From Candidatus Spechtbacteria bacterium (lineage in GTDB: Bacteria > Patescibacteriota > Minisyncoccia > Spechtbacterales > JACPHP01): 64,000 nucleotides of DNA. Below are positions 38,782-60,441 of this stretch, piece after piece. The position numbers and the translations under genes were made by a program. How positions within the stretch are numbered: position 1 is the first letter of the stretch; every line of letters begins with the position of its first letter. The stretch lies in the NCBI GenBank assembly GCA_016188605.1, contig JACPHP010000001.1, forward strand, positions 1,327 to 65,326, given 5' to 3'. A model generated the notes under the pieces. It searched no databases. It saw only the letters and a program-made list of their open reading frames with translations, and was not told where the DNA came from.

Positions 38782-40347
38782 TTATTCTCTTCTTAGTATC
38801 TCTCCCGCTCGATTCGTCGTCGTCTTTCCATCTCGCACCGCTACTTCGCCATTGACGATAACCCAATTTATACCAGATGGGTATTGATAAGGATTTTGAA
38901 AAGTCGCGTTATCTTTTATTTTCTTTGGATTAAATATCACTATGTCAGCATAAGCGCCTTTTTCAATTTTTCCGCGATTCTTTAAACCTATTTTTTGCGC
39001 AGGGCCGTATGTCGCCTTGTAGATGGCTTGTTCCCATGTCAGCAGATTGTTTTCTTGAATATATCGCGAAAAATATCTTGGAAATGCTCCAAATGATCGC
39101 GGATGAACGAGTTTCCCTGACTTGCCGTCAGAATGTAGATATCCGATACCATCGGACGATGTAAAAGAATAAGGATTCTGTACTGCTTGCATAATATTTG
39201 CCTCCGAAAGTGTGGTCGTAAATACTGATACGCGTCCTTCCGACGCCGAAAGCATATTGAGTACCGCATCTTCAATGGAGGTTTCCTGATTTTTGGCAAT
39301 CTCTTTTATGGTTCGGCCAATAAACGTAGGGTCAAGGTTAGCAGATGCGATAACCATTCTATCGTACTGATGCGGATCTTGCCGCATTTCCTGCACAAGG
39401 CGTTTGCGTATCACAGAATCTTGAATACGCTCAAGCATTTTTTTCTTTCCGCCTTCAGCAACCCAATCGGGAAGAAATATATAGAGTACAGATAAAGTCG
39501 TTGTATACGGATAAAGGTCAAAATTTACAAACACTCCCTGCGACCGAGCTTCTGTTATCATATCAATTGCTTTTGAAAAATTTGACCAGAATGTTTCTCC
39601 CATCGCTTTGAAATGGGATATTTCAAGATGTACTGTGTTGCGGCTGGCTGAATCAAGCGCTTCTTCCACCGCCGGAATTAAATGTTCTCCTTCGTCGCGT
39701 AGGTGCGCGCTATAAAGGCCATCATATTTTTTTACCACATCGAGCAACGCGTCAATTTCTGACGCTGACGCAATTTTGGCATGCGAATAAGCAAAACCGG
39801 TTGAAAGACCAAACGCGCCTTCGTTCATAGCATTATCCAGCAGGAATTGCATTTGTTTTATTTCATGACTATTAGCTTCGCGAAAACTATCACCAAGAAT
39901 ACCGCGACGGAGCGTTGAGTGACCAACAAGAGTGCCGACATTGATACGCAGATGATGATGATCTAATTCCGCAAGATACTCACCCATCGACATCCAGTTG
40001 ACATTTAACAGTGACGGATCAGCCCATTTTTGTACCATCATAATAACACCGGGGTTCGTTAACGGCGCGAGTGACGTGCCGCAATTGCCCATCAGGATGG
40101 TTGTTATACCCTGTTGAACAAGACTATTCTGGCCAGCGTTGGAAAATAACGTTAAATAGACGTCGGAATGATTAAGAATATCTACGAATCCGGGGACGAC
40201 GAAATTATTTTGCGCGTTAATGACACGTTCATTGTTATGCTCGTGAAGATTTCCAATTTCATGGATAAGATTTTTCTCAATTCTAATATCAGCTTCGTAT
40301 CGAGGCTGTTGCATGCCATCTATAATTATGCAATTTTTGATGAGCAT
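38782..40347 (-). CDS. amidohydrolase-superfamily protein, N-acyl-D-amino-acid deacylase (D-aminoacylase)-like; occupies the usual murD slot between mraY and ftsW
   Basis: 521 aa. N-terminal VVPGFVDILNHSD metal-binding segment. Overall D-aminoacylase-like architecture. Confidence 0.65.
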   Translation of the reverse strand: MLIKNCIIIDGMQQPRYEADIRIEKNLIHEIGNLHEHNNERVINAQNNFVVPGFVDILNHSDVYLTLFSNAGQNSLVQQGITTILMGNCGTSLAPLTNPGVIMMVQKWADPSLLNVNWMSMGEYLAELDHHHLRINVGTLVGHSTLRRGILGDSFREANSHEIKQMQFLLDNAMNEGAFGLSTGFAYSHAKIASASEIDALLDVVKKYDGLYSAHLRDEGEHLIPAVEEALDSASRNTVHLEISHFKAMGETFWSNFSKAIDMITEARSQGVFVNFDLYPYTTTLSVLYIFLPDWVAEGGKKKMLERIQDSVIRKRLVQEMRQDPHQYDRMVIASANLDPTFIGRTIKEIAKNQETSIEDAVLNMLSASEGRVSVFTTTLSEANIMQAVQNPYSFTSSDGIGYLHSDGKSGKLVHPRSFGAFPRYFSRYIQENNLLTWEQAIYKATYGPAQKIGLKNRGKIEKGAYADIVIFNPKKIKDNATFQNPYQYPSGINWVIVNGEVAVRDGKTTTNRAGEILRRE

Positions 40348-40470: not shown

Positions 40471-41619
40471 TTAATGGAAGCTAAGCCAAATTGCTGTCAT
40501 TGAAAAAAGCGAAGCTACAGCCCATGCGTACATCACTATAGTCGCCTCGCTCCAACCTGTAATTTCAAGGTGATGATGTAACGGGGCCATTGCAAGCAAT
40601 CTATGTCCGAATAATACACGCCACGCGACTTGAATGAGAACTGATACGATTTCAATAACGAATATTCCTCCTATGATTGGCAAAAGCACTACCCTGTCTA
40701 ACGCAAACGCAATCGCGGTAAGCATTACCCCCATTCCAAGCGATGCCACGTCTCCCATTTGATATCGTGCGGGTTTGATATTAAATAGTAAATAGCCAAG
40801 CAGTGCGCCTATCGTTACCGCAATCAGGAAAATGAAATCTGTGTTTCTATGTTGGAGCGCTACGATAAAAAACGCGCTGTAGGATAGCAGTAATGTCCCA
40901 GCAGATAGCCCGTCAATGCCGTCGGTAATGTTTACAGCATTAGACATAAACATAACCAGGAAAATAATTAAAGGAACAATCATCCAGCCCAGATCATATG
41001 AACCATGCCATGGAATCCAGATTGACGTCCAGCTAAGCTTAAATGAAAGCCACCAGGCAATAATGCATCCTATAATGAATTGTACCAAAATTTTCTCATG
41101 AGCCTGAATGCCACTGCCGGGATGCGATCCCAGAAGATAGAAAAATCTTTTATACGCGTACCACGGCAATAACAGTACATACCATACGCGAGCTAAAATA
41201 TTTTTGTGGACGCGTATAAGCGTCCAAACTTTTCCAAGCGTACGCACGGGGCGGGTTTTTGTATAAAAGATATTCAGCAGGTCGTCCAAACCACCCAAAG
41301 CAGCTGACAACAGTAGCACTCCTATTGGTACATATGTCGTCTCACGATGCCAATTAAACATCGTTGTGAGCACCGCGATAACGCTAACAATTATAATGCC
41401 TCCCATGATTGGTGTACCTATTTTTGCCTCGCGCCCGGCAATTAACGATGAAAAATCGTGTTCATCTCGTCGAGTTATGTGTAATTTTTTAAGAAGCGCG
41501 ATAAGCGGAATTGAGCCTATGACGGTTAAAGCGAATGCCGTGAAAAAAAATGCAAAAATAGAATCCGGAAATGAAGTAAAAATCATACTTACAAGTACAG
41601 CGGACGATATAGACCACAT
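40471..41619 (-). CDS. mraY: phospho-N-acetylmuramoyl-pentapeptide transferase
   Basis: Motifs GTPIMGG and NAVNITDGIDGLSAG. Confidence 0.85.
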   Translation of the reverse strand: MWSISSAVLVSMIFTSFPDSIFAFFFTAFALTVIGSIPLIALLKKLHITRRDEHDFSSLIAGREAKIGTPIMGGIIIVSVIAVLTTMFNWHRETTYVPIGVLLLSAALGGLDDLLNIFYTKTRPVRTLGKVWTLIRVHKNILARVWYVLLLPWYAYKRFFYLLGSHPGSGIQAHEKILVQFIIGCIIAWWLSFKLSWTSIWIPWHGSYDLGWMIVPLIIFLVMFMSNAVNITDGIDGLSAGTLLLSYSAFFIVALQHRNTDFIFLIAVTIGALLGYLLFNIKPARYQMGDVASLGMGVMLTAIAFALDRVVLLPIIGGIFVIEIVSVLIQVAWRVLFGHRLLAMAPLHHHLEITGWSEATIVMYAWAVASLFSMTAIWLSFH

Positions 41620-42359
41620 GCTACCTCCTGGCCCGATATAAACCCGCGTTGCTGGTTAATTGTGCGTGATGTGTTGGGCCACTCTTCCCAATGCTGTTCA
41701 ACCAAAGGCAACGATTCATTCGTGATAGTTATTTTTCCTTCTTTTATTCCCTCGCCAGTTTCTTCACGTACCGATTGAGCGTATTCCACGGAAATCAACT
41801 TATCGTTATTATCTCGTTCAGTTTTTATAACAAGTATGGCATGGTCAACTTCAGCGACAAATCTAATCAAGTCGCCGGGCTGCAATTCTTGCCAATTCTT
41901 TAATTCCCTAGCATTTTGTAGATCGGTAAGCGTTGCAACACCGATGTGCGTGAATGGGCGTAAATAAATTGCGATTTTTGCAAATAAGCCAGACTGCGGG
42001 AATTGCAAAACTTCATATACGCGCTTGCTCTTACTTTGACGCGTCCAAGCATCAAATATATGGGCGATAAAACCGGAGCATTCCACGCCGAGCCGCCTCT
42101 TTCTCATTATATCACGAACTTCATCTTCTTCCATTGAGGAAAAGTTTTTATGCTCAAGGCGCTCAATTATTTTGAGTTCGTCTTCAATCTCTTGAGGAGA
42201 CCCTTTGCCGGAAAAAGCGTTCAAGCCCCAGCGCTCCTTACCACTGCGAGGATTGCGATAATAAGGGCAACGGACTGCCCTGTTGTCACCTATGTTGAGA
42301 TGTTTATAGCGCTCTATAACGTCTAGAGCTGGTTGAGGGATACTTACAATTGTATTCAT
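41589..42359 (-). CDS. hypothetical protein, possible Cys/His hydrolase (ECSGFIAHIF ... EVDHAILV)
   Basis: 256 aa. Candidate catalytic Cys and His in a papain-like spacing. Family not confidently assigned. Confidence 0.45.
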   Translation of the reverse strand: MNTIVSIPQPALDVIERYKHLNIGDNRAVRCPYYRNPRSGKERWGLNAFSGKGSPQEIEDELKIIERLEHKNFSSMEEDEVRDIMRKRRLGVECSGFIAHIFDAWTRQSKSKRVYEVLQFPQSGLFAKIAIYLRPFTHIGVATLTDLQNARELKNWQELQPGDLIRFVAEVDHAILVIKTERDNNDKLISVEYAQSVREETGEGIKEGKITITNESLPLVEQHWEEWPNTSRTINQQRGFISGQEVACGLYRPLYL

Positions 42360-42368
42360 ATGTTTACT

Positions 42369-42455
42369 ATCAACGAATAACGAATCCTTTACGAATAAAC
42401 GAATTGGCTGTAGCGGAGTATTCGTATATTCGTACGCTATTCGTTATTCGTTGAT
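42369..42455. mobile_element. MITE family A copy 8
   Basis: atcaacgaataacgaat ... attcgttattcgttgat. The right TIR supplies ...I-I-N-E-stop of the ATP-grasp gene. Confidence 0.8.
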
Positions 42456-43673
42456 GATATATTCTTGCACCCTATATAGCTCCTCATTCACCCCTACCAC
42501 TTTCATACGCGAAGTAACAATTCCTTCACCTAAGGGCAGCTGAATTTCCGAAACCAGCACTTCATTCTGTAGTTTATTGCGATACAGCACTTGCCGTACC
42601 TTACCACGCAAGACAAGCGGCGGTAAGTCCCCGTTCGACAAGCTCAGGGCAAGCTCCTTTTTCGGCTCGAATCCTGGCTCCAGCATGTCGTTAATAAACA
42701 ATAGAATTAGAGGGGTTTTATTTATGGCTCGATGCAGTTTTGCTTCAAATGAAATGCTAGCTGGCTGATGCGTGTTTACTTCAATAAAGTATACTTTACC
42801 AGTGCTTTTTTCTGCCACAGCGTCAATGCCAAAAAGGCCATTGTAGCCCTTAGCATGCATCGCGGTTCCTACGTTTCTCGCCATCACGCCGATAGCTTCT
42901 ATTTGACTTTGCGAAAGTTCTTCGGACACGATGCCGAAATCGTTTCCCACGGTTGATGACGGATTGTTTGTTGCTTCAGGTAGTCCGGTAAGCTGTTTGC
43001 TGATAGAGCCCGTATAGACCGTGCCATTTTTTGCTGCAAACGCATTAAGAGTGTAAGTATTTCCCGTGATGAATTGCGCGATCCTTACTTCCCTATTCGG
43101 GAATTTTTCCGCGTGCGGAGTAAGATCTTCGATTGACTGCAAAATAAACGTCCCTCCTCCGCTGTGGCCGATATTATACTGGGCAACTAACGGTAACGGC
43201 ATTTTTGCAATAACTTTGGTTGCTTGCGACAATGTTGTAATAATAGTTGGCGGAAACTCAATGCTATCTTTAAGATGTTGATATTGGGTTATTTTATCTT
43301 CAAAAAGAGTTGCTAAATCCGCGCGCGGCGCCATAAGTTGCCAGCTGTTCTTTTGGCATTCTTGCTCGATAGGCTCGGAGGTTTTTAGTACAAGAATGTT
43401 TGATTGCTGTCCGGCCGACAAATCATCAATATATTTTATAACGCAGGTTAACTTCGCCACGCCATAAGTGCCAGCGCGCAGATTATCTTCCCAATTTTTG
43501 TCAACACAATCGCGTTCCAGAATAAACATTTTTGTGCCCCTTGCCTCCAAGTCATCTGTAAAAGCGCTTTTATATGGACAAATAATAGCGTAGTTAGCCA
43601 AATCATCCTCAACGCCGGTTGCGCGTTCAGGGTCAAGGGCGAGATAGAAAATTTTGTTATTCCCTATTGACAT
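42444..43673 (-). CDS. ATP-grasp domain protein (peptide/amino-acid ligase-like)
   Basis: ATP-grasp C-terminal motifs GLFGIDAV and YFIEVNTHQPASISFEA. Start taken at Met29 (43673), because the first 28 track codons lie in a tataat-rich spacer. Confidence 0.65.
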   Translation of the reverse strand: MSIGNNKIFYLALDPERATGVEDDLANYAIICPYKSAFTDDLEARGTKMFILERDCVDKNWEDNLRAGTYGVAKLTCVIKYIDDLSAGQQSNILVLKTSEPIEQECQKNSWQLMAPRADLATLFEDKITQYQHLKDSIEFPPTIITTLSQATKVIAKMPLPLVAQYNIGHSGGGTFILQSIEDLTPHAEKFPNREVRIAQFITGNTYTLNAFAAKNGTVYTGSISKQLTGLPEATNNPSSTVGNDFGIVSEELSQSQIEAIGVMARNVGTAMHAKGYNGLFGIDAVAEKSTGKVYFIEVNTHQPASISFEAKLHRAINKTPLILLFINDMLEPGFEPKKELALSLSNGDLPPLVLRGKVRQVLYRNKLQNEVLVSEIQLPLGEGIVTSRMKVVGVNEELYRVQEYIINE

Positions 43674-43746
43674 ATAATTATAATATATGGTATATAAAAA
43701 AAATAATCGGGAGTATCGCAATATATTCCTTAAAGGAGGAATAAGA

Positions 43747-43941
43747 GTGGTTGACATCGGTGAAGTAATCTATCTTGCTATTGCGGTATTTATTGGTTGT
43801 GCGTTCGGAAACTTTGTGGAAAGCTCTTCTAGAACGGGAAGCTCTTCTAGAAGTCGTGCGTTCGAGCGCAGTCTCTTTCAATTTGTAGCATTATTTTGTT
43901 TTGTCTTGTCCATCGTACTTGTCTACCTCATCCGTGTATAA
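43747..43941 (+). CDS. small two-TM protein (GTG start, strong SD AAGGAGG) containing a tandem 17-bp repeat
   Basis: aaaggaggaataagaGTG. Encodes VVDIGEVIYLAIAVFIGCAFGNFVESSSRTGSSSRSRAFERSLFQFVALFCFVLSIVLVYLIRV. Tandem agctcttctagaa x2 inside. Confidence 0.4.
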   Translation: MVDIGEVIYLAIAVFIGCAFGNFVESSSRTGSSSRSRAFERSLFQFVALFCFVLSIVLVYLIRV

Positions 43942-44793
43942 TAAATCCGTCATTAGACACACCGACTGCCCAGCTTCACCAAGAGGCTGGGCTTTTTCTT
44001 TCCATTTTAGAAATCCCGCGAATGCCAAAACGCTTTGCCAACCTGGCTTAAACTCACAGCCCTCAAAGTACTTCGCGGCATTTTCCAGTTCTTGATTGAA
44101 AATAACATAGCCATTGCCACCGGTTGCGCGGACAATATTCGCAACTGTTTTTTTGCGAGGTGCTACGCGGTCTACGATTGCCGTGGCCAAACTTTCTTTT
44201 TCTTCTATAAAATCTTTGCTAAATTCTTGCGCTATCGTGTGCACCTTGCTTGTTTGTACTATATGAAGTTCCGGAACCTCACATCCAAGGACTTTATATC
44301 CATTGTATATTCCCTGCAAGGTTGCGCCTGAGCTAGTAGGTATAAAAATGCGTTTCGTATCGGGCAACTGATCGCGTAGCTCAAACGAGATTGTTTTATA
44401 TCCCTCAATCCCCTCCTCATGCTTTGACGCGAGCAGATTAGGAATATTGTTCTTTTGGCTGAATTGTACGGATTCCTTGCGCGGAAGCGCGCTCTGGTAT
44501 ATCTGGATGTTGTCAAAAGATTGAAGGCGTGCTAGTTTTTCTTTGGCAAGCTTGGTGCTAATAAAAACATGCAGGCGGATATTTGCTAGCTTGCAATATG
44601 CCGCCGCGGAAATAGCGGAATTTCCGGACGAGGCAATAGCGAGCTCTTTTACGCCATTCATACGACAAAGCGAAATCCAATACGCGAAAGATCGATCTTT
44701 GTGCGTACCAGTGGGGTTGCGAAATTCAAGTTTTCCCCACACCGAAATATCCCCAATTGACTGCGTTTTTTGCAGACTATATACTGGGGTCAT
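43891..44793 (-). CDS. threonine synthase-like PLP-dependent enzyme (fold type II)
   Basis: GEGMTPVYSL...GKLEFRNPTGTHKDRS...ASSGNSAISAAAYC aligns with the ThrC N-terminus and PLP-Lys motif. Start taken at the internal Met (44793) so the gene does not overlap the divergent Zn-ribbon gene. Confidence 0.65.
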   Translation of the reverse strand: MTPVYSLQKTQSIGDISVWGKLEFRNPTGTHKDRSFAYWISLCRMNGVKELAIASSGNSAISAAAYCKLANIRLHVFISTKLAKEKLARLQSFDNIQIYQSALPRKESVQFSQKNNIPNLLASKHEEGIEGYKTISFELRDQLPDTKRIFIPTSSGATLQGIYNGYKVLGCEVPELHIVQTSKVHTIAQEFSKDFIEEKESLATAIVDRVAPRKKTVANIVRATGGNGYVIFNQELENAAKYFEGCEFKPGWQSVLAFAGFLKWKEKAQPLGEAGQSVCLMTDLLYTDEVDKYDGQDKTK

Positions 44794-44868
44794 TCCCTCT
44801 CCCAAGGAGGATTTACAACCATCCGGGATGGGCGGAGAAAACAAATCATTAAAGTCCCAAAATATCAT

Positions 44869-45031
44869 GAAAGTAAAATGCCAAGAATGTAAAAATGAAA
44901 AAGCGTTAGACGACTTTGACGCGCAAGCAGGCAACTGGTTTGAGTGCGACTATTGTGGCACTACCTACGAGATTGTCGATATTGACGAAGACGGTGAGCC
45001 GCAGCTGCAAATGATTGAGGAGGAAAAATAA
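44869..45031 (+). CDS. LysW-like zinc-ribbon protein (54 aa, CxxC-x17-CxxC followed by acidic tail)
   Basis: MKVKCQECKNEKALDDFDAQAGNWFECDYCGTTYEIVDIDEDGEPQLQMIEEEK. Has the G-x-x-Y-E-[IV]-V motif after the second CxxC, like amino-group carrier protein LysW, but the C-terminus is EEEK rather than EDWGE. Confidence 0.5.
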
Positions 45032-45099: not shown

Positions 45100-45295
45100 T
45101 CAAAATTTTCAATGGTTATGTTTTCAGCCATAGCAAGAAATACAAAAAAATGTATTTCTACGTTTAACAAAAATTACAACAAAATGTAATTTTACGCTAA
45201 GGCTGATCCCCGCCAGAGGCGGGCAGGCGTCTCAGGCGGAGAAAATTTAGTAATTGTAAATTTATTGAAAATTGTTAAATTGAAAATTGATCATT
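45100..45295. repeat. spacer filled with heptamer repeats (ttgaaaattg units) and a long-variant REP-like element
   Basis: ttcaaaattttcaatgg...gtaattgtaaatttattgaaaattgttaaattgaaaattgatcat. The same ttgaaaattg motif follows R8 at 27400..27455. Confidence 0.6.
45196..45246 (+). mobile_element. REP-like element long variant copy R9
   Basis: gctaaggctgatccccgccagaggcgggcaggcgtctcaggcggagaaaattt, the reverse complement of the 21367 copy. Confidence 0.65.
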
Positions 45296-46630
45296 TTTCT
45301 GTTTTATAGTTCTTATTGTCTCCTCTATCATCCCCCTAAACCCTTTTTGGCTCATGAAAACAACACAGCCAAAGATATCCCGTTTCCTCCAACCAACTAC
45401 AATTTTTTTAATTTGCGAAATTACCTCCTCGTCTTCCGTTATAAATTGTACGCGCTTGTAATCTTTTTGAATTTTCCGCGCAAGCTTTTTATTAAACTCT
45501 TGTGATTCAGCCGAAGTGCCGCTCAAGCGAGGCAGTAAGACATAATCCGCCTTCGCAAAACATTTGTGGTATTCTTTTTGCTTCAGCGCCAAATCGCTTC
45601 TATTTCCCGGTTCGTATATTGCGATTATAGATTTGCAAGGAAATTGCGCGCGGATTGCTTCAAGCGCCCCCTCAACTTTTTCCGGAGAATGGGCGTTGTC
45701 GTCTATCACTACTATGTTTTTGTCCTGGTAGCGCACTTCCTGGCGGCGTTTAATGCCCTTAAAAGTTCGCAGCGCTCTCTTTATTTGTTTATCTTCTATT
45801 CCTATCTGTTTGGCTAGCGCCACGACCGAACCAATATTCTCTTTCCATGCCGCGCCCAAAAAGGGAGGGGTAAAGCCTTCGGCGCTATTTTCATCGTACC
45901 AGCAAATTTGTGCTTTTGCACCATTTAGAACCTCTTGGGCATTCTCTCCCCTTCTATTGGCAATAATCACGCCATTTTTAGGCATTTTTAGGGCAAGCTT
46001 ATGGAATGTATTTATATAAGAACTCTTGGTCGGAAACATATCCATGTGGTCCCAGGTGGCACCCGTGAGAATAAGATATTTGGGGTGATAAGCCAAAAAT
46101 CGCGATGTTTTCTTCCAATTTGCGATGGGATATTCATCACCCTCAAGAACCGACCACTTGCTATCCGTGCTGCGGATGCCGTCGGTGAAGTTTTTGGCAA
46201 TGCCGCCTATCATAAAACTGGGATTGAATTTGGCGACTTCGAGCAGCCACGCAACGAGTGACGTTACAGAAGTTTTGCCGCACGATCCTGCCACAACAAT
46301 AGAATTTTCTTTTTCTATTAGTTCTGGTAAAACTTCGCCATATGTCTTGTAGGGAATCTTATTTTTTATAGCATAGGCAAGTTCGGGATTCTTTTTGCTA
46401 ATGAACGCCATAACTAGCACAAGATCGGGCCTTTGGCTAAGATGTTTTTCTTTGTAGCCAGGCATAATTGCAATGCCATTTTTCTTCAAATAGGTACTCA
46501 TGGGCGGGAAAAACGCGCGATCGGAACCAGTCACTTTCCAGCCAAGTTTTTTATACAAAACAGCCAGAGGTGCCATTGTCACCCCAGAAATGCCTATAAA
46601 ATGAATGTGTTTTTGAGTTTCTTTGGTCAT
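45275..46630 (-). CDS. Mur ligase of the MurC/Mpl subfamily (UDP-MurNAc--L-Ala ligase or UDP-MurNAc:tripeptide ligase)
   Basis: IHFIGISGVTMAPLAV...VTGSDRAFFPPMSTYLKKNGIAIMPGY...VAGSCGKTS...LEGDEY...TWDHMDMF. The GSD-x-x-x-PPMST and EGDEY...DH motifs resemble Mpl more than canonical MurC. Confidence 0.75.
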   Translation of the reverse strand: MTKETQKHIHFIGISGVTMAPLAVLYKKLGWKVTGSDRAFFPPMSTYLKKNGIAIMPGYKEKHLSQRPDLVLVMAFISKKNPELAYAIKNKIPYKTYGEVLPELIEKENSIVVAGSCGKTSVTSLVAWLLEVAKFNPSFMIGGIAKNFTDGIRSTDSKWSVLEGDEYPIANWKKTSRFLAYHPKYLILTGATWDHMDMFPTKSSYINTFHKLALKMPKNGVIIANRRGENAQEVLNGAKAQICWYDENSAEGFTPPFLGAAWKENIGSVVALAKQIGIEDKQIKRALRTFKGIKRRQEVRYQDKNIVVIDDNAHSPEKVEGALEAIRAQFPCKSIIAIYEPGNRSDLALKQKEYHKCFAKADYVLLPRLSGTSAESQEFNKKLARKIQKDYKRVQFITEDEEVISQIKKIVVGWRKRDIFGCVVFMSQKGFRGMIEETIRTIKQKNDQFSI

Positions 46631-46676: not shown

Positions 46677-47810
46677 TCATATAATTTTCGCTAATACTTT
46701 CTCCGCGTAATCTTTATCGCGTACCACATCCCCTACAGGCAGACCAGTTTCATTCTCCGCTTCTTGTGTCGCGCGTCGCGTGTCTTCTTCAGACATGCCG
46801 GATGTATTCAAAGCCACCGCTGCAACTTTTGTGTCGCGGTATGTCGGTAAAATACTAGATTCGTAGTGCTTAATCGCTTCTTTCAGCGAAGGAAGAGCCA
46901 CAAGCTTGGAGCCAATGGAGTGTTTTCGCGCGGGCCTGTGGACTAACACCATATGCGTTGGCACCGCGCCGTGAATTAGGGAGATGCAGGTATTCGAGAA
47001 TGCGGGATGAAATAAACTCCCCTGCCCTTCCACAAAAAAAATATCGTAATCATTTTGTTTTTCAATCAGCATTTTCTCCACCGCGCCAGCCATAAAATCC
47101 GCTGGCAGGGCGTCTATGGAAATCCCCCAGCCCTCAATCATAATGCTCGTTTGTCCCGTAGGGATTACGCAGGCACGCATGCCCCGCTTTTGCGCAGCTC
47201 GCGCGAGTTCATAGCTTGTTGTCATCTTTCCAATAGCGGCATCGGTACCTACCGTTAAAACTATAGGTTTTGTAATGTGATAAGATTGCGAGGAACACAC
47301 GGGAATACTTTGCAAATCAACATCAGAGCGCACGTCCCAAATTATTGAGCCACTGGTTTTAGCGGCCTCGCTAAACTGCGCATTATTTTTTAGCGGATAA
47401 TGCATTCCCGAAACTACATGCATGCCTTGTTGCAAAGCCGTTAGAATATCATTTTCCCACTCGCGTGGCAACCCTCCGCCCTCTGGGGCGGCGCCTAGTA
47501 AAAGAACAGATGCTTTGGTAATATCACGCGCTTCAGCGAGCGACGAAAAAATTGGCGTATCGACATTTTTTGAATCATCGAGATATCCGCCAAGCACATC
47601 ATATACTCTTATGTGGGGTATCCGATACCCCACATAAGATGTGGAGTCCACGATGCCCGCTATCGGATATTCCGCGTATCGCAAAATCCCATCCGCGGTT
47701 TTTGCCCGCATGGGGAATTTTTTGCGTGCATTAAGGCCAAAAACCCCCTCGGCGTAGATGAGAGATACGTGCTCTGCTAGGTTAATCGGCGCATTTATTG
47801 GGCTAGCCAT
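46677..47810 (-). CDS. DUF1611-family P-loop protein (same family as MurL, the UDP-MurNAc-L-Ala-L-Glu epimerase described in Xanthomonas)
   Basis: N-terminal LIYAEGVFG...AKTADGILRY...GIVDS and P-loop TVGTDAAIGKMTT match the DUF1611 pattern from memory. Confidence 0.55.
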   Translation of the reverse strand: MASPINAPINLAEHVSLIYAEGVFGLNARKKFPMRAKTADGILRYAEYPIAGIVDSTSYVGYRIPHIRVYDVLGGYLDDSKNVDTPIFSSLAEARDITKASVLLLGAAPEGGGLPREWENDILTALQQGMHVVSGMHYPLKNNAQFSEAAKTSGSIIWDVRSDVDLQSIPVCSSQSYHITKPIVLTVGTDAAIGKMTTSYELARAAQKRGMRACVIPTGQTSIMIEGWGISIDALPADFMAGAVEKMLIEKQNDYDIFFVEGQGSLFHPAFSNTCISLIHGAVPTHMVLVHRPARKHSIGSKLVALPSLKEAIKHYESSILPTYRDTKVAAVALNTSGMSEEDTRRATQEAENETGLPVGDVVRDKDYAEKVLAKII

Positions 47811-52920: not shown

Positions 52921-53955
52921 TTACTTTATTGTCTGATTGCTATTATCAAGATAAACGATATACCTGCCTGATTTTAAATCTTGTTTTGTAGTAATTTTTC
53001 GAACTGCATAAGCTACTGCCGATCCCGCGATTGTCGCGGTGGTTCCAAGCTGAGGCACTGCCGCAATCGTTTTGCCGATTTCAGAAAGAGACTCCCGCAT
53101 TCTTTGCGTGAGGTTAGCGGGATCAACTATTCTTGTCGCAACCTTTACCCATTCAGAATACGCCAGTCCAGCTATCTTGTCGGGATCAACTCCTTCAACC
53201 AGACCGTGTAGAATAGGTCTTTCTGGTTCTTCATCAAATCTCTCAACATCAAGTATAACATTATCTCCGTTATCTGTAGCCATAACCACCGGAATGCGAT
53301 GTTCGCGGCACACTATGCGTGAAAGAAGCTTTAATTCCAAGCTATCCATTTCATCAATGAAAACGTCTAATTTTGGCTCAAGAATAAATTTTTCAAGCGT
53401 TTGGCGATTTACACCATCAGTCCATAAATCCAATTCTGAAAAAGGGTCTAGCTCCCAAACCTGTTGTGCCGCAAAGTCAGTTTTATTCATTCCTATGGCA
53501 AATACTGGCGCGCGAAGGCGGTTGAGATTAGTAATCTCAATGACATCATAGTCGGCTATTTTTAAATTTTTCGGACCACCGCTGAAAACCAGCGCGTTTA
53601 TTACATTAGAACCAACGGAAAGACCTATAATTCCTACTCTCGCCGCTCTATATGTTTCCTGTTCTTCCTTGGTAATAATATTTTTGTTGCGCGCAGTGCG
53701 CAACTCAAGATAAATCTCCTCGCTAGGCACGCGCGCCACGATATTTCGCCAAGGATAATATACATACACTGCGGGCAAACCTTCGTTATTTTTGATAAAA
53801 ATATCGCACTTTTCCGCCCTCTCTGTTGGCGGAGCGGATTTTAGCGCGGGGTTGCGGATAACGCAGAGTTCTTTCAGCGCTGTGGGGATTGTGTCAACAA
53901 AAATCGCGCCGGCGGGTAACAATTGTTTATCTTTTTCTATACGAATTGATTGCAT
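52921..53955 (-). CDS. ThiF/MoeB/E1-like adenylyltransferase-fold protein with about 110-aa N-terminal extension
   Basis: Rossmann GIIGLSVGSNVINALVFSGGPKNLKIADYDVIEITNLNR, typical of the E1-like superfamily. Confidence 0.65.
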   Translation of the reverse strand: MQSIRIEKDKQLLPAGAIFVDTIPTALKELCVIRNPALKSAPPTERAEKCDIFIKNNEGLPAVYVYYPWRNIVARVPSEEIYLELRTARNKNIITKEEQETYRAARVGIIGLSVGSNVINALVFSGGPKNLKIADYDVIEITNLNRLRAPVFAIGMNKTDFAAQQVWELDPFSELDLWTDGVNRQTLEKFILEPKLDVFIDEMDSLELKLLSRIVCREHRIPVVMATDNGDNVILDVERFDEEPERPILHGLVEGVDPDKIAGLAYSEWVKVATRIVDPANLTQRMRESLSEIGKTIAAVPQLGTTATIAGSAVAYAVRKITTKQDLKSGRYIVYLDNSNQTIK

Positions 53956-53966
53956 AGATATGCATA

Positions 53967-55532
53967 TTACGTCTTTTTAGTCCACCTTTGTTTAATAGAT
54001 TTTACATTGAAGTATTTTTCATCTCCCTTGGCTGCAAAACGAATTGACGGAATAGCTCTTTCTCCAATAGCATCATAGAGCCGATTGTATTCAAGGTTTC
54101 TTTTGCGAAGCGCCGCGACGATGTAATCGCTTACGATTTTTCGGGCGAGCGCGCTTTCCTTTACGCCTTCGCGCAATTCAACAGTAATTTCCCAGTATTG
54201 GTCCTGGTTGCTTTTACTTTTTTGCTGCATCACAAATTTACCCGTCGCAAATGGCACAACTTCTTCGTTCTCCAATCCCTCCTTGATGTTTTCTGGATAA
54301 ATCTTTAGCCCGTAAAAAGAGATGGTAAAATCGCTTTTTCCAAATACTGCTAAAAATGGAAACGTCCATTTAGGTTGTTTTTGTACCGACTGATCGCTAG
54401 CAAGGCTTGAAATTTTCATCACTTCGTCAAAAGGAATAATTTTTCCGGCATCGTGGACGTTATACCTTACAAGCGGCACTCCACCCCTTGCCGTAAAAAG
54501 AAGCTCCCCTTCCTGTTCTTCGAAGAATTTAAAGATGGGATGATATTGCACAAATGTCGGGGTAAACGTTTCATCTCCCCACAATTCCGATGCTGTGTCT
54601 TTATCCTCTGATGCCGCGCGGCGTATGGCAACCGAAAGAGGTGTTTCGTGTCCCAGAATCCCCGAATCGGCAGAGCCATATATATTAATTGATGTAGATT
54701 CGGCGCTAGTCGCGTTGGTTTTACTTAGTATGTAGTCGCGAAATGCTTCGCTGAAATTTTCTGTAGCAAAAAGAAATTTTATCTTTTGATTTTCCCACGA
54801 TATCCCCCTTTTCTCTCCGGCGTCAATAATATCTTTAACAAACGGCGGGTACCCGGCGAGAACAATCTGGTTATATTTTGGGCCCAGTTCCTTTATAGCA
54901 CGCAGTACGTCATTAAGCTCAACTCCCGGAGCAATAATACTGATAGGCAACCCCATTTGCGATGTATGTAAAATAGAATCAAGTGTAATAATTCCGGCAA
55001 TATAAATACCCATTGAGAAACTTATTACTACAAGCGTGGGCGTGCTGCCGGCATCAAAAAATTCTTTTAATATAAGAGCGTGGATAAGAGACGTTTCTAT
55101 TTCAAGATTGTCACCCCTAGGCCAAAAATATGGCGTACCTGAAGAGCCAGAGCTGACAGAAAAGATAGTATTTTCTTCAACCTTGCCATCCCACGACAGC
55201 TCTTCGGACGAATATGCCTTGATATAGTTTTCTTTATCAGTAAAAGGTACATTCTTAAAATCATCTATAGTTTTAATTTCGGTGTGCTTGATATTGTTCT
55301 TTCTTAGAAAATCTTTATACGCGGGCACGCTTTCTGCCGCTTCGTGAAATAGAGAAAGAGCCATCTCTTGTCCGTGAGTTTCCCAAAAATCGGCGCTTTT
55401 TGAGCAAAGCAAGGAATTTGCTTCGTCAAGATTTATTTTATACAAATTGAGGATTCCGTCATATTTAAATCCACGCCTGTCAAAAAGGCGTAAGAAAAGT
55501 TTATAAAAAGGATTTAACGTGTCGTGTTTCAT
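53967..55532 (-). CDS. adenylate-forming enzyme of the PaaK/CapK/F390-synthetase (ANL-like) family
   Basis: ATP-binding motif FSVSSGSSGTPYFWPRG and overall architecture. Confidence 0.6.
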   Translation of the reverse strand: MKHDTLNPFYKLFLRLFDRRGFKYDGILNLYKINLDEANSLLCSKSADFWETHGQEMALSLFHEAAESVPAYKDFLRKNNIKHTEIKTIDDFKNVPFTDKENYIKAYSSEELSWDGKVEENTIFSVSSGSSGTPYFWPRGDNLEIETSLIHALILKEFFDAGSTPTLVVISFSMGIYIAGIITLDSILHTSQMGLPISIIAPGVELNDVLRAIKELGPKYNQIVLAGYPPFVKDIIDAGEKRGISWENQKIKFLFATENFSEAFRDYILSKTNATSAESTSINIYGSADSGILGHETPLSVAIRRAASEDKDTASELWGDETFTPTFVQYHPIFKFFEEQEGELLFTARGGVPLVRYNVHDAGKIIPFDEVMKISSLASDQSVQKQPKWTFPFLAVFGKSDFTISFYGLKIYPENIKEGLENEEVVPFATGKFVMQQKSKSNQDQYWEITVELREGVKESALARKIVSDYIVAALRKRNLEYNRLYDAIGERAIPSIRFAAKGDEKYFNVKSIKQRWTKKT

Positions 55533-55576
55533 ATTTTTATACGTGACGCAAACTTCAATAATATCTCATGAATATC

Positions 55577-56626
55577 TCATGTTAGCACTTCTTCAACTCC
55601 TCTTCGCGGGCTATGTGGCGCAACTTTTGTAGGATATCCTAGTCCAAAAAACATTTGCGGAGAGAGGGTCTGGTTAGTTTTTTCAAAAATAAAAGTCGAG
55701 AGTTTTTTTCTGGACTCGCCACTTTCAATTGCAGCAACCATAATGGACGCGGCCATGCCTTTGCTTTGTAATGTCAGAAGTACGCTTTCAAGAAGCTCTC
55801 CGGTATGCAGCCACGCCGCCGCATTATCATCTTTGGTGCTTATTATACCAACAGCTCCGAAATTTAGCACGCGCTTAATCGCTTTTTTCTCCTCTACTGG
55901 CGATACATCTATTAAGCGTAACGCCCAAGGTGCCGCAAGTGATTTAAGCATAGACATTTCGTGTCCAGATCCCGGCATGCCATCTCGGCTCATCGTCCAA
56001 TTATTGCGAATCCATGTCGCAAGTTCTTTGCGGAAATCAAGCTGCGACATTTTTTCTTTCATGCCTTCCCCCGCTATCGAAGCCAATAGTTTTTTATCGG
56101 TGAAATTATTGGTAATAGTTAGATTGATGCCGCTTTCGCTAACTAGATTCTGAAGATCATCAATAATTTCCGCTGGCACTTCTTTGTTCTGATACTCTGC
56201 TCTGTATGAAACGCGCTGCGTAATTGCTGAAAATAAGGCATCATCATGGCTAACAAGGCCTTTATCGTCGCATGTTAGCGTTACGGCGTGCTCGGCGTTA
56301 GCGTTTGAAAGCTGTTCGTTATAATGAACAGCGCATTCAAAACCGTAATGTTTTGCCGCAATAATCATATTTTCTGCGGCGCAACCAAGGGCGATATAAG
56401 TCATGCGGCCTGTCGGATCGCCAAATTGCGGGCGGCGTGAAAAATCAGCAATTATTTCAATGCTGTTATTATCTACATGAAATTTCCATGGTTGTGTGTT
56501 GTGGCTGGATGGCGCGAGGATGCCAAAACAAACTAAAAATTTTAGTTTGTCGGTTTTGGTGGGCTGGTCATAGAAACCCCTTGGGTCTATACTCCACGCT
56601 TCGTAGTTTGATGGTTTACGGCACAT
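55577..56626 (-). CDS. nitroreductase-family flavoprotein (two-lobed, about 350 aa; SagB/Acg-like size class)
   Basis: SSHNTQPWKF motif and a second degenerate lobe. Confidence 0.65.
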   Translation of the reverse strand: MCRKPSNYEAWSIDPRGFYDQPTKTDKLKFLVCFGILAPSSHNTQPWKFHVDNNSIEIIADFSRRPQFGDPTGRMTYIALGCAAENMIIAAKHYGFECAVHYNEQLSNANAEHAVTLTCDDKGLVSHDDALFSAITQRVSYRAEYQNKEVPAEIIDDLQNLVSESGINLTITNNFTDKKLLASIAGEGMKEKMSQLDFRKELATWIRNNWTMSRDGMPGSGHEMSMLKSLAAPWALRLIDVSPVEEKKAIKRVLNFGAVGIISTKDDNAAAWLHTGELLESVLLTLQSKGMAASIMVAAIESGESRKKLSTFIFEKTNQTLSPQMFFGLGYPTKVAPHSPRRGVEEVLT

Positions 56627-56641: not shown

Positions 56642-57718
56642 CTAAAGTTGTAACACTGTTTGATGAATAGCCTCCTGTACTTTTTTCATATCTTGTTCTG
56701 AAGGCACTGCCATGCGCACCGCGTTTGCTAGATACGGTAGATTGGCTGGATGGTGTGATAGGTCATTTATCAATATTCCGTGATCGCGCATAGCTTCTAA
56801 GAAATTGGCTGAATTTTCGGTTTTGAAAAGGAAAAAGTTGGCCTTCGAAGGATAGACGCTAATCCCTTCTTTGCGCAGAAATTTTTCCATCGCCGCCTTC
56901 CTTTCGGCAAACTTTTTCCATTGTTCTTCAAAATAATGGAGGTTTTTAAGCGCAGTTGTTGCCGCGTAAGTGCTGAAATGGCTTAATTCCCAAGGGCCGC
57001 GCAGTTTTATTATTTCCCCAACAATAGATTCGTCAGCCAACATATATCCGATTCTTAGTCCCGCCATGCCAAAAAATTTGGAAAAAGTGCGTAAAACTAT
57101 AAGATTTTTGTGTTTCAAGATGTCTTGTACGTGGCTATGAGGGTAAAATCCAAAATATGCCTCGTCAAGGATGACAGGTATGCCTTGGTCGTCGCATGTA
57201 GCAATAAGCTCATTTAGCTGGCTCTCGTCCATTGCCGCTCCAAGAGGATTGTTAGGGTTGCACAGCAAAAGCGCTTTTGCACCTGGAAGGGCTTGTTTTG
57301 TTTCTTCAAAAGGAAATTCAAAGGATGTTTCGTTGTCGCGGTAAGGAATTTCTACAAGCTGGATTGGAGAAAATTGCGCTCGGTAGTTATAAAAAGCAAA
57401 GTTTGGCGATGGCATGATAACCTTGTCACCCTCGCGAAATAAAAGTTTAAAAAGTAGGTCAATTGCCCTGTCGGACCCGCCGGTAAGAAATATATTTTTA
57501 GTAGAAACGCCCGTGTAATTGGCTAGCAAGTCTAGTAGTTCCTCGTATTCCGGGTAACATCCGACAGTAAAAACGCTGAAATCCTTCAGCTTTGCCAAAA
57601 AATCGTCGTTTATAAGCCCGTAGCTCTCATTCAAATCTAGTCGGATAAATTGCTCTCTTTTAGAGGGCATTTTGTAGCGCTTTTGTGGCAACGAGTATTT
57701 CTCTGTAGAGAAAGTCAT
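56642..57718 (-). CDS. class I/II PLP aminotransferase, histidinol-phosphate aminotransferase (HisC/CobD)-like
   Basis: LNESY...GSDRAIDLL...NPNNPLG...RTFSKFFGMAGLRIGY (PLP-Lys). Confidence 0.75.
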   Translation of the reverse strand: MTFSTEKYSLPQKRYKMPSKREQFIRLDLNESYGLINDDFLAKLKDFSVFTVGCYPEYEELLDLLANYTGVSTKNIFLTGGSDRAIDLLFKLLFREGDKVIMPSPNFAFYNYRAQFSPIQLVEIPYRDNETSFEFPFEETKQALPGAKALLLCNPNNPLGAAMDESQLNELIATCDDQGIPVILDEAYFGFYPHSHVQDILKHKNLIVLRTFSKFFGMAGLRIGYMLADESIVGEIIKLRGPWELSHFSTYAATTALKNLHYFEEQWKKFAERKAAMEKFLRKEGISVYPSKANFFLFKTENSANFLEAMRDHGILINDLSHHPANLPYLANAVRMAVPSEQDMKKVQEAIHQTVLQL

Positions 57719-57777
57719 ATAGCTTATATTATAATATCACAAAATACCTTTTAAGTAAATAGATAGGGTTTGCGGCT

Positions 57778-58908
57778 CTATAACCCTCGTTTTATACGGC
57801 GCAAGCTTTCCAGTGCCCAGTTTGGCCAATAACGCCAGGAAATCGGTAAATCTTGCGCGTGGAGATAATCTGTTTGGTAGCCTCCGAATCCTTTTTTGAA
57901 CAACGTTAAGCCAGCCCATGGGTGCTTAGGATTTTCGCTGGTTGTGATGCCCCAAAAGTTATATAGCTTCTTGTTTCTTCTCTTTGCTTCTTTAATTGCC
58001 GCCCACTGCACTGCGTAGGCAGTCGGGATATTTGAATACCTAAGCGATGACGCGCCGTGGTGGTAGAAAGCGCTGTTTCCGTAAAAAATAATCACCGCGC
58101 TTGCTTGAGGTTCACCCTGAGCATTGCCGAAGGGCTCGCCCTTATACCAAGCGGAGATCACCTCCGCTTGTCCTTCCGTAGTCCTTCCGTAGCATTGTAG
58201 CGTAGGAGGGCGAAGGAGGACACTTTCATTTTTCGAGAACGCATCAACCTCGCATTGAATATATTCTCGTGAAAATGGAATAAAGTCGTGCTTAGCAACT
58301 GTTTCTTTGTGTAATTTATAAAAATGGTCAATATCTTCCTTGCTGGCGCCGATTGTAATCTCTACGCCTTCTCTTTCCGCGCGGCGGATGAGGTTTCGCG
58401 TGGTTTTGCGCATGCCCTTTAGCAATTCTTCCTCGCTAGGCGATAAATCAAGTGTCCAAGTAGTTTCCGCGTGCATGTGAATTGGCGCGGGGCGAAAACC
58501 CAAATCAGCAAAAAGCTGGCGATTTTCTTCAGTAGCTATCATTGGCGGGCTGACGCGAATAAAATACGCTTTTTCTTGTTGTGCAATCTTTTTTAACTCC
58601 GATGTAAGGGTTTTTAAGATTTCAAATTTTGAATTTTCATTTTGAGATTTGAGATTTGAGATTTGAGATTGAAATATCGGCCCGTGTGGTATAAAAAGAA
58701 ACCTTCCGCGTCTCGCCTCTACCAAAATTACAAGTATCACTGATACGAGTTCTCCATTTTCCTCAACACCAAAACGCCACATCTTATCCCCCATTCGCAC
58801 GTTAAACTCGCCCCACTGCCATGAATGCAGGAAAGTATGGTCGGGCTGGGAAGTGACGAAACTATCCCATTTTTCCTTGTCTGTTATTTGGATGATTTGT
58901 GGAGACAT
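57778..58908 (-). CDS. FemAB/FemX-family aminoacyl-tRNA-dependent peptidyltransferase-like protein
   Basis: HSWQWGEF N-terminal motif and tandem GNAT-like halves, about 376 aa. Confidence 0.65.
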   Translation of the reverse strand: MSPQIIQITDKEKWDSFVTSQPDHTFLHSWQWGEFNVRMGDKMWRFGVEENGELVSVILVILVEARRGRFLFIPHGPIFQSQISNLKSQNENSKFEILKTLTSELKKIAQQEKAYFIRVSPPMIATEENRQLFADLGFRPAPIHMHAETTWTLDLSPSEEELLKGMRKTTRNLIRRAEREGVEITIGASKEDIDHFYKLHKETVAKHDFIPFSREYIQCEVDAFSKNESVLLRPPTLQCYGRTTEGQAEVISAWYKGEPFGNAQGEPQASAVIIFYGNSAFYHHGASSLRYSNIPTAYAVQWAAIKEAKRRNKKLYNFWGITTSENPKHPWAGLTLFKKGFGGYQTDYLHAQDLPISWRYWPNWALESLRRIKRGL

Positions 58909-58913
58909 AATGT

Positions 58914-59068
58914 TATCTCAAAACGCAAATCTCAAATGTCAAAACTGAAACTTAAATCTCAAAACTACTACGGAGATACTTTTAATTTTTCCGCCAGAGG
59001 CGGATCAGCCTCAGGCTGAAGATTTAAGATTTTGATTTGAGTTTTACGATTTGAAATTTGAGATAAAA
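58914..59068. repeat. palindromic heptamer array (caaatct / agatttg arms) enclosing REP-like element R10
   Basis: Same organisation as 796..950. Confidence 0.7.
58987..59020 (-). mobile_element. REP-like element copy R10
   Basis: ttttCCGCCagagGCGGatCAGCCtcaGGCTGaa. Confidence 0.7.
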
Positions 59069-59082
59069 ATAGTTTACTACTG

Positions 59083-60318: not shown

Positions 60319-60373
60319 CTATTTTTCTTTAGTGTATTTTAAGAGTTGGTTCTATGAAAGATCTGATGTTTTT

Positions 60374-60439: not shown

Positions 60440-60441
60440 AG

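Follow-up and report, generated by a model that had tools for sequence, protein, structure and literature searches.

A conserved LysW-fold protein that ends in an invariant lysine, encoded among the cell-wall genes of Patescibacteria, suggests an undescribed carrier step tied to cell-wall precursor synthesis. The protein belongs to a sister family of LysW that comprises about 770 members, all of whose named sources are Patescibacteria, and that is fixed in the cell-wall cluster of this mostly uncultured phylum. To our knowledge, LysW-type carriers occur only in lysine and arginine biosynthesis and in the production of a few metabolites of Streptomyces and Serratia, and these carriers all end in Glu; we also know of no organism in which a step of peptidoglycan precursor synthesis depends on a carrier protein. 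Our literature search returned no description of the family or of its gene module. Genes kept in genomes as minimal as those of Patescibacteria probably matter. If the small protein is a carrier, it would extend the carrier-protein concept to a new handle chemistry, point to an unrecognized lineage-specific step in peptidoglycan precursor supply, and bear on how episymbionts build walls without amino-acid biosynthesis.

A small acidic protein of the LysW fold

The gene lies in a window of 64,000 nucleotides (64 kb), the whole stretch of DNA that was analyzed. The features at and around it are as follows:

44867 to 45031, plus strand: the small gene, an open reading frame for a 54-aa acidic zinc-ribbon protein of predicted LysW fold, laid out as C5xxC8...C27xxC30 with the tail E51-E52-E53-K54 at the extreme C-terminus
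45047 to 45081, plus strand: terminator-like hairpin and T-run, with an 11 bp stem and a 3-nt loop, 16 nt past the small-gene stop
44757 to 44785, plus strand: promoter-like TTGACT-17-TATACT, a 10/12 consensus match only

The open reading frame is present with exactly the sequence quoted in the preliminary description of this DNA, and its product is entered at NCBI as hypothetical protein MBI2462666.1. That description also gave the cysteine spacing as CxxC-x17-CxxC; the actual arrangement is C5-x2-C8-x18-C27-x2-C30, two residues longer than the x16 gap of Thermus LysW as read from alignments. The G-x-x-Y-E-I-V motif (G31-T-T-Y-E-I-V37) and the acidic character are as claimed: the protein has 16 D/E and 5 K/R residues, a net charge of -11 (versus a family mean of -7.5) and a pI of 4.05.

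The small open reading frame is a real, constrained gene. Conservation in relatives, which the preliminary description had proposed as a check, is found: all 13 orthologues are 54 aa long, homologues keep a constant length of 54-55 codons, and dN/dS ranges from 0.06 to 0.26 among the 13 orthologues (mean pN 0.24), while synonymous sites are almost saturated (mean pS 0.81). All other frames over the gene are interrupted by stops. The hairpin is the only such site in 44500 to 45350, with a modest fold z-score of -1.9, and the promoter-like sequence lies about 80 nt upstream of the small-gene ATG, within the coding region of the neighboring PLP enzyme.

The relationship to LysW emerged by profile and fold, not by single-sequence search of the PDB, in which the small protein alone matches LysW at only E 0.3-0.4. 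The Pfam model Zn_ribbon_LysW (PF21344) scores 26.4 bits for this protein against a cut-off of 27, that is, 0.6 below. Among 98 relatives, 93 match the model at E<=1e-4, the best of them at 1e-12. An AF2 model of the protein has a pLDDT of 89.7, and its top four Foldseek matches in the PDB are all LysW chains (5eio_C, 3wwn_B, 3wwl and 3vpb_E), with TM scores of 0.72-0.85 and rmsd values of 1.6-2.4 Å. Profile and predicted fold agree that the small protein and the globular domain of LysW are homologous. The preliminary description had proposed a LysW-like carrier, to be doubted if no LysW HMM match and no conservation were seen; both are seen. The homologous globular domain thus stands, whereas identity with LysW/ArgW as defined does not: the tail ends in Lys, and the LysW equivalog models fail (TIGR01206, 16.9 vs 53.2; NF041070, 33 vs 75). 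Some relatives are named 'lysine biosynthesis protein LysW' by JGI and UniRef. The present analysis corrects the database names carried by the family, which include 'LysW lysine biosynthesis', 'sulfonate ABC transporter' and 'RpoP'.

Most conspicuous is the C-terminal tail, EEEK, with Lys54 as the strictly last residue. Across 98 aligned relatives, C5, C8, N10, E26, C27, C30 and K54 are invariant and E52 is present in at least 90%, and of 70 unique metagenomic copies of the protein, 69 stop exactly at DEGK, EEEK or EEGK. In the AF2 model, the tail consists of four residues past a beta-strand. The 3' end of the small gene overlaps the MurC-like gene in some loci, and we considered whether this overlap preserves EEEK; since the ending is kept with or without it, the overlap is ruled out as the cause. 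This pattern of sequence conservation suggests that the C-terminus behaves like a chemical handle.

A conserved enzyme set in a cell-wall cluster

The small gene is flanked by the following genes, all on the opposite strand:

43891 to 44868, minus strand: ThrC-like fold-type II PLP enzyme, 325 aa from an ATG at 44868 (Pfam PALP, E=1e-37)
42444 to 43757, minus strand: divergent ATP-grasp ligase (PF02655, PRK06524)
41589 to 42359, minus strand: Cys/His protein of 256 aa, with invariant Cys94 (in G-V-E-C-S-G-F) and His173
45275 to 46630, minus strand: MurC/Mpl-like ligase with three Mur ligase domains, convergent with the small gene

A ThrC-like PLP enzyme gene adjoins the small gene divergently in 46 of 48 loci, and the MurC/Mpl-like ligase is convergent with it in 44 of 48. 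Among the 20 large loci, defined as those with at least 7 kb on both sides of the small gene, 15 carry both the divergent ATP-grasp gene and the Cys/His gene, usually beside MraY, and the other five have neither nearby, so the constant partner is the PLP enzyme and not the ligase. The module lies in or beside a cell-wall cluster that comprises the MurC/Mpl-like ligase, MraY, FtsW and MurG. This neighborhood is kept over deep divergence, the enzymes being only 33-40% identical, and the small gene also occurs with the PLP, ATP-grasp and Cys/His genes as a stand-alone module in three lineages, L029 (Dojkabacteria), L030 and L100; in the last of these, the three enzyme genes overlap by 4-11 nt. 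The link of the small gene with a ThrC-like enzyme and an ATP-grasp protein, proposed from this one locus, is therefore borne out in distant relatives, and the ATP-grasp gene does lie two genes from the small gene, as the next gene downstream of the PLP gene. Without exception, the small gene and its supposed partner enzymes are encoded on opposite strands, a placement unusual for subunits of one pathway. Homologues of LysX, LysZ, LysY, LysJ and LysK were found neither among the Pfam- and NCBIfam-scanned open reading frames of the window nor in the conserved neighborhood of the small gene.

The PLP enzyme carries its predicted PLP lysine in NPTGTHKDR and its carboxylate loop in SSGNSA, both of which are invariant. 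Among curated models, archaeal 'threonine synthase' entries match it best, though none comes near its cut-off, and it matches ThrC structures in the PDB at 1e-14. The level of a ThrC equivalog is not reached: TIGR00260 gives 55.8 vs 167, and all PRK ThrC models fall far below their cut-offs. When the enzyme is aligned to 1uim, Ala stands opposite N154 and Gly opposite R160; these two residues (Thermus ThrC numbering) presumably bind the substrate phosphate, which makes the comparison tentative.

The ATP-grasp gene has a conserved part that begins at M29 (coordinate 43673). Its product matches PF02655 in seven of eight orthologues (best 1.6e-13), NCBIfam PRK06524 in all eight (best 1.4e-39, below its cut-off) and the Ddl_archaea model in seven, and rimK_fam in only one of the eight. 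By these profiles, the protein is not of the RimK/LysX type and is nearer to Ddl and the pseudomurein ligases; the LysX-type partner originally envisaged for the small protein does not hold up. Sequence and profile searches of the PDB with the ATP-grasp protein gave nothing significant (PGM1, E=0.21; ITPK1, 0.02 over 36 residues).

The Cys/His gene always follows the ATP-grasp gene, and in this locus its 3' end and the start of MraY share 31 nt. Cys94 (within ECSGF) and His173 are invariant in eight orthologues. The protein has weak Pfam matches to NlpC/P60 (E 0.006-0.09); against the PDB, the single sequence gives none, and a profile gives a weak match to the C40 peptidase 6bim (E 0.03) in a doubtful register. 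Its single-sequence AF2 model has a pLDDT of 36. Taken together, these matches and motifs indicate that it is probably an NlpC/P60-like hydrolase or transferase of the papain fold. The MurC/Mpl-like ligase scores 253 bits with murC (cut-off 335) and 238 with mpl (cut-off 389) and is very basic, with a net charge of +24.

A possible carrier in peptidoglycan precursor synthesis

The reading that we favor, at a little short of an even chance, is that the small protein is a carrier or protein substrate of a Patescibacteria-specific PLP, ATP-grasp and Cys/His set linked to peptidoglycan precursors. ATP-grasp enzymes are known to modify small acidic proteins at their last residue, as LysX/ArgX do with LysW, RimK with S6 and TTL with tubulin. 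Similarly, CysM, a fold-type II PLP enzyme, uses the C-terminus of CysO as a reactant, and the protease Mec+ releases the product. Covalent loading, the order of the steps, the substrate and the link to peptidoglycan are what we infer for the small protein.

The zinc-ribbon body would dock onto the enzymes, and the four-residue tail would present Lys54 at its very end, while Glu52 would serve for recognition. The ATP-grasp protein would then form an amide between the C-terminus of the small protein and an amino-acid substrate. Either the epsilon-amine of Lys54 might attack a substrate carboxylate activated by the enzyme, or the alpha-carboxylate of Lys54 might itself be converted to an acyl phosphate, the mode of activation used by RimK and TTL. 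The PLP enzyme may make or transform the tethered amino acid, and the Cys/His enzyme may release or transfer the product into stem-peptide synthesis. Such a scheme would follow the logic of LysW, except that an amine-bearing residue (Lys) would replace a carboxylate (Glu) as the handle. The PLP enzyme needs a free alpha-amine, which excludes the simplest LysW-style tethering through the alpha-amino group of the substrate. A more specific version, in which the amino acid is tethered through its carboxyl to the Lys handle, leaving the alpha-amine free for the PLP enzyme, and is released by the Cys hydrolase into the MurC/Mpl-like step, is rather unlikely. Some observations count against a carrier: the ATP-grasp protein could simply make a free dipeptide, the tail of four residues is far shorter than the LysW arm, and the NlpC/P60 assignment rests on weak matches and a Cys/His motif.

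Similarities to known systems

The small protein resembles LysW/ArgW of Thermus, Sulfolobus and Thermococcus and the AmCP of Streptomyces in its length of 54 aa, its zinc-ribbon fold, its Pfam domain and its strong acidity. Both kinds of protein also keep a conserved residue at the very C-terminus and go together with an ATP-grasp ligase as well as a hydrolase. The LysW/ArgW proteins, however, end in EDWGE, where the gamma-carboxylate of the terminal Glu carries the substrate, whereas the small protein ends in DEGK or EEEK, with Lys. The flexible tail measures about 15 residues in LysW and about four here. In addition, the LysW/ArgW set includes a kinase, a reductase, an aminotransferase and an M20 hydrolase, none of which is present in the small-protein module, and a RimK/LysX-type ligase, which the ATP-grasp partner here is not by its profile matches. 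Instead, the small protein is accompanied by a ThrC-like PLP enzyme together with an NlpC/P60-like protein, within a patescibacterial cell-wall context.

The tightest pairing in the module, that of small protein and PLP enzyme, is matched in the CysO-CysM-Mec+ system of Mycobacterium and in related sulfur-carrier/PLP enzyme pairs, where a fold-type II PLP enzyme takes the C-terminus of a small protein as reactant and a dedicated protease sets the product free. The differences are that CysO is ubiquitin-like with a Gly-Gly thiocarboxylate handle, is activated by an E1-like adenylase and works with a CysK/M-type PLP enzyme, whereas the protein described here is a zinc ribbon ending in Lys that accompanies an ATP-grasp protein and a ThrC-type enzyme. 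RimK-S6 and tubulin tyrosine ligase also resemble the proposed chemistry in that an ATP-grasp enzyme lengthens an acidic protein tail at the alpha-carboxylate of its final residue, but their targets end in Glu, their products are modified proteins, and no PLP enzyme is involved.

The canonical pairing of a PLP enzyme with an ATP-grasp enzyme in peptidoglycan precursor synthesis is that of Alr with Ddl, or of a racemase with D-aspartate ligase, and ddl normally adjoins murC. The ATP-grasp protein here matches Ddl and the pseudomurein 'Ddl_archaea' model weakly, and its scores do not come near the Ddl cut-offs. In contrast to Alr, the PLP enzyme is fold-type II and ThrC-like, and the canonical systems have neither a carrier protein nor a Cys hydrolase. 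Another relevant case is MurD2/MurL, an alternative route to D-Glu in Xanthomonas (PMC8788868). These set a precedent for lineage-specific ATP-driven alternatives to early peptidoglycan steps encoded beside Mur ligases, although the proteins are unrelated, involve no carrier protein and, in the case of MurL, have no recognized domains. A DUF1611 protein suspected to be MurL was rejected, MurL being without a recognized domain.

Alternative functions

A somewhat unlikely alternative is that the small protein is a non-covalent accessory or regulatory subunit that binds the ThrC-like enzyme, the basic MurC/Mpl-like ligase or both and is never itself modified. It might activate or inhibit its partner, or it might mimic a substrate, in which case its E-x-K-COOH end would imitate the gamma-D-Glu-L-Lys terminus of a stem peptide. 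Such a role would suit the tightest neighbors, which are the PLP enzyme (46/48) and the MurC-like ligase (44/48) and not the ATP-grasp protein, as well as the opposite charges of ligase and small protein (+24 vs -11), the short tail, and a divergent opposite-strand position typical of regulator-target pairs. A mere docking tail, however, would tolerate extension or substitution, yet the Lys is invariant and always last. All characterized proteins of the LysW fold, judging from the fold matches and established knowledge, are covalent carriers, and the stand-alone modules lack a MurC-like neighbor.

Less compatible with the data is a scaffold or precursor peptide whose C-terminal Lys, or E-x-K, is itself converted to a small molecule or cross-link, as in pearlins, mycofactocin and PQQ, or as a graspetide-type Lys-Glu lactam released by the Cys/His peptidase. 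An invariant terminal residue, an ATP-grasp protein and a peptidase-like gene do occur here in one conserved set, and the best PDB sequence match of the ATP-grasp protein, albeit weak and not significant, is PGM1, a ribosomal-peptide ligase. We nevertheless regard this as improbable: the small protein is predicted to be a folded LysW-type domain and not a leader-core peptide, a phylum-wide set among housekeeping cell-wall genes in very small genomes is unlike secondary metabolism, and one protein consumed per product cannot supply a bulk wall component.

The fold, the Pfam domain and some automatic annotations (JGI, UniRef) might also recommend a canonical LysW/ArgW, which would carry amino groups in arginine biosynthesis or in the alpha-aminoadipate pathway to lysine. 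This is very improbable, as an invariant Lys stands where the substrate-carrying terminal Glu would be, the scores fall well short of the equivalog cut-offs, and no LysX/Z/Y/J/K homologue is found among the scanned open reading frames of the window or in the conserved neighborhood. The host lineage, moreover, belongs to the Patescibacteria, which are known for missing amino-acid biosynthesis.

Lastly, there is a negligible probability that this stretch between two cell-wall genes is a chance open reading frame, or gives a regulatory antisense transcript, and makes no functional protein. The gene is short, lies opposite in strand to the surrounding operon, overlaps its neighbors at both ends in some relatives and was missed by gene callers in L014 and L016, but its codon-level conservation (the dN/dS range given above) refutes this explanation, and its constant length, invariant zinc ligands, confident fold prediction and roughly 770 homologues argue in the same direction. 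An additional antisense role is possible.

Start of the PLP enzyme

The longest open reading frame of the ThrC-like enzyme spans 43891 to 44934 on the minus strand, and NCBI annotates a 300-aa protein from 44793, at the internal Met of MTPVY. The preliminary description chose the same Met, and its 75-bp divergent promoter region is a product of that choice. The 25 residues upstream of MTPVY (MIFWDFNDLFSPPIP..SLGEG) are conserved at the protein level in the closest homologues (P0006-P0009, P0042, P0057 and P0074), which makes the ATG at 44868 the most likely start; the internal Met is probably not the start. What looks like a Shine-Dalgarno sequence ahead of MTPVY is accounted for by the codons of the conserved LGEG. 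The palindromic CATG noted at the starts of the two genes is real (44866 to 44869), with the plus-strand ATG at 44867 and the minus-strand ATG at 44868. As a general feature this start overlap was rejected; it is present in only 6 of 66 unique loci, all from a Spechtbacteria-like clade.

Gene organization

We identified a small open reading frame that lies divergently beside the gene for a fold-type II PLP enzyme, within a row of cell-wall genes.

Genes at the locus
44867..45031, plus strand: small gene, encoding MKVKCQECKNEKALDDFDAQAGNWFECDYCGTTYEIVDIDEDGEPQLQMIEEEK
44934 (TTG) to 43891, minus strand: PLP enzyme ORF (Pfam PALP, 1e-37)
42444..43757, minus strand: ATP-grasp protein, downstream of the PLP enzyme
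41589..42359, minus strand: 256-aa protein, downstream of the ATP-grasp protein
45275..46630, minus strand: MurC/Mpl-like ligase, upstream of the PLP enzyme

After the 256-aa protein the minus strand continues with MraY, an Amidohydro_3 protein, FtsW and MurG, while further upstream it encodes a DUF1611/DgcN-like protein and an S11 D-Ala-D-Ala carboxypeptidase. The exact proteins of the locus are recorded for a MAG of Candidatus Spechtbacteria, where the small protein is annotated as "hypothetical protein" (MBI2462666.1). A promoter-like TTGACT-17-TATACT precedes the small gene by about 80 nt, within the PLP coding region, and a terminator-like hairpin with a T-run is found 3' of its stop codon.

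In the PLP ORF, ATG codons occur in frame at 44868 (MIFWDF...) and 44793 (MTPVY...). The preliminary description placed the start at the second, internal Met. The nearest homologues retain the 25 residues from 44868 to MTPVY, which include the ThrC-type L-x-E-G-x-T-P motif, so the predicted start is most likely 44868; the Shine-Dalgarno-like GGGAGAGGGA ahead of MTPVY corresponds to the codons of LGEG. The two start codons would therefore overlap, and the palindromic CATG reported earlier is indeed present (44866..44869), common to the ATGs at 44867 (plus) and 44868 (minus). The enzyme is ThrC-like, with PDB ThrC matches at 1e-14. As it falls far under every ThrC equivalog cut-off and has Ala and Gly aligned with Thermus ThrC positions N154 and R160, which we take to bind the substrate phosphate, we did not adopt the name threonine synthase.

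The substitution pattern marks the small ORF as a real gene. Protein searches and the genomic surroundings of PLP-enzyme homologues yielded close relatives (46-72% identity), some of them in loci where gene callers had overlooked the ORF; all 13 orthologues have exactly 54 codons. In the annotated frame, mean pS is 0.81 (synonymous sites near saturation) and mean pN 0.24, with a dN/dS of 0.06-0.26 for the closest pairs. Each of the other five frames contains stops (6 to 80 across the 13 sequences), and pN/pS exceeds 1 in four of them.

A LysW-like family ending in lysine

Exhaustive profile and word-indexed searches returned a family with about 770 members, 53-65 aa long, whose named organism sources are all Patescibacteria. 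Pfam Zn_ribbon_LysW scores 26.4 bits on the small protein against a gathering score of 27, and PF21344 matches 93 of 98 family members at E<=1e-4 (best 1e-12). An AF2 model from the 98-sequence alignment (pLDDT 89.7) has as its top PDB matches LysW chains from Thermus, Sulfolobus and Thermococcus (TM 0.72-0.85, rmsd 1.6-2.4 A). Given these profile and predicted-fold matches, we regard homology to the LysW globular domain as established.

LysW carries its substrate on the gamma-carboxylate of the C-terminal Glu in an EDWGE tail, whereas the small protein ends in EEEK. Across the 98 relatives the four Cys, N10, E26 and C-terminal K54 are invariant, and E52 is kept in at least 90%. The 70 unique metagenomic copies end in DEGK (53), EEEK (12) or EEGK (4), always with a final Lys apart from one outlier; this copy (L090, 696..917) has a frameshifted, longer tail (...HHYL) in place of DEGK, probably through a sequencing error or pseudogene. 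Since residues 45-50 form a beta-strand in the model, about four tail residues would be free. The LysW equivalog models are not reached (16.9 versus 53.2; 33 versus 75), and the scanned ORFs of the 64-kb window include no LysX/Z/Y/J/K-type genes. For these reasons (terminal Lys for Glu, short tail, equivalog scores and missing partner genes) we rejected a canonical LysW identity. For the LysW-like carrier originally proposed, the domain homology and fold are supported, and the terminal residue and equivalog scores depart from LysW. The cysteine spacing is x18, not x17 as first described.

Database names in the family include 'sulfonate ABC transporter', 'DNA-directed RNA polymerase subunit RpoP', 'ribosomal protein S27E' and 'lysine biosynthesis protein LysW', but gene context supports none of these. 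Some members have already been labelled LysW by automatic pipelines. Protein P0171 has two LysW-like ribbons in tandem and ends in IEEEK, and P0160 and P0161 are LysW-like with an LDP/LEP motif and the ends TTYK and SLDK. An apparent fusion of the PLP-enzyme N-terminus with the small protein's C-terminus (P0145) is probably an assembly artefact.

Conserved neighborhood and partners

The strongest evidence on function is the gene neighborhood, which we scored with profile HMMs built for this analysis in 80 loci from metagenomes, representing 70 unique small proteins. The pairing with an adjacent, divergent PLP enzyme was borne out in 46 of the 48 loci that had sufficient upstream sequence, and 44 of 48 have a convergent MurC-like gene no more than 1.5 kb away. 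Both the ATP-grasp and 256-aa proteins occur in 15/20 loci with at least 7 kb on either side, usually adjoined by MraY. The Spechtbacteria-like order (DUF1611, MurC-like, small gene on the opposite strand, PLP enzyme, ATP-grasp, 256-aa protein, MraY, amidohydrolase, FtsW, MurG) is conserved. Stand-alone sets of the small gene and the PLP-ATP-grasp-256-aa genes, apart from MurC, occur in L029 (Dojkabacteria), L030 and L100, the last with 4-11 nt overlaps among its three enzyme genes.

In every locus the small gene runs opposite to the co-directional cell-wall genes on either side. In 10 unique loci its stop and that of the convergent MurC-like gene overlap by exactly 20 nt.

Examples of the 20-nt 3' overlap, among others
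L014: 4837..4856
L023, L024 and L027: 10146..10165
L032: 8146..8165

The CATG start overlap occurs in 6 of 66 unique loci, a Spechtbacteria-like subclade outside which the divergent gap is about 40-200 bp. Such overlaps leave no intergenic space at either end of the small gene, and its transcription could possibly interfere with read-through from the MurC-like to the PLP gene.

The ATP-grasp protein, judged from its profile matches, belongs to a divergent family: PF02655 matches at best at 1.6e-13, PRK06524 matches 8/8 orthologues, and there are weak matches to Ddl and pseudomurein Ddl_archaea. The ATP-grasp gene noted earlier near the small gene is there, as the second gene away; rimK_fam matches one of eight orthologues. 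The 256-aa protein has an invariant Cys in G-V-E-C-S-G-F, an invariant His and weak NlpC/P60 similarity. The MurC/Mpl-like ligase scores under both curated cut-offs (murC 253 versus 335; mpl 238 versus 389), and its substrate may be non-canonical.

Possible function

An invariant, strictly last residue is a signature of chemically used C-termini, as in LysW, ThiS/MoaD/CysO, Pup, S6/RimK and tubulin/TTL, and in three of these systems the ligase is an ATP-grasp enzyme. In CysO-CysM, a fold-type II PLP enzyme acts on the carrier's C-terminus and a protease releases the product. By analogy with these precedents, we favor, at somewhat below even odds, a role as carrier or protein substrate with Lys54 as the handle. 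Confidence is held back by the opposite strand of the small gene, the shortness of the tail, the loci in which no ATP-grasp gene lies nearby and the PLP enzyme's requirement for a free alpha-amine. Speculatively, a substrate joined by its carboxyl group to the epsilon-amine of the Lys would keep its alpha-amine free and so meet that requirement. From gene position only, we infer a link to peptidoglycan.

In the main rival reading, which we consider less likely, the small protein would act non-covalently, as an accessory or regulator of the PLP enzyme or of the MurC-like ligase; the latter is very basic (net +24, pI 9.6), opposite in charge to the small protein (net -11). Searches of the literature outside subscription journals turned up no account of the Lys-terminated family, of its partners or of the cell-wall setting.

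Other clusters in the window

At 52921..56626 (minus strand), consecutive genes encode a ThiF-family protein, a 521-aa protein without a Pfam match and a nitroreductase/TM1586-type protein, which may form a small peptide-modification or cofactor module. A second cell-wall-related cluster at 56642..62073 (minus strand) comprises a class I/II aminotransferase, FemAB, a DegT-type aminotransferase and a 543-aa Mur ligase, in which only the middle and C-terminal domains are recognized. The Amidohydro_3 (D-aminoacylase-like) gene at 38782..40347 (minus strand) lies between MraY and FtsW, the place usually occupied by murD, and the DUF1611/DgcN-like gene at 46677..47810 (minus strand) comes before that for the MurC-like ligase. 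The conservation of these two genes in the Spechtbacteria-like clade is a hint of unusual D-amino-acid handling.
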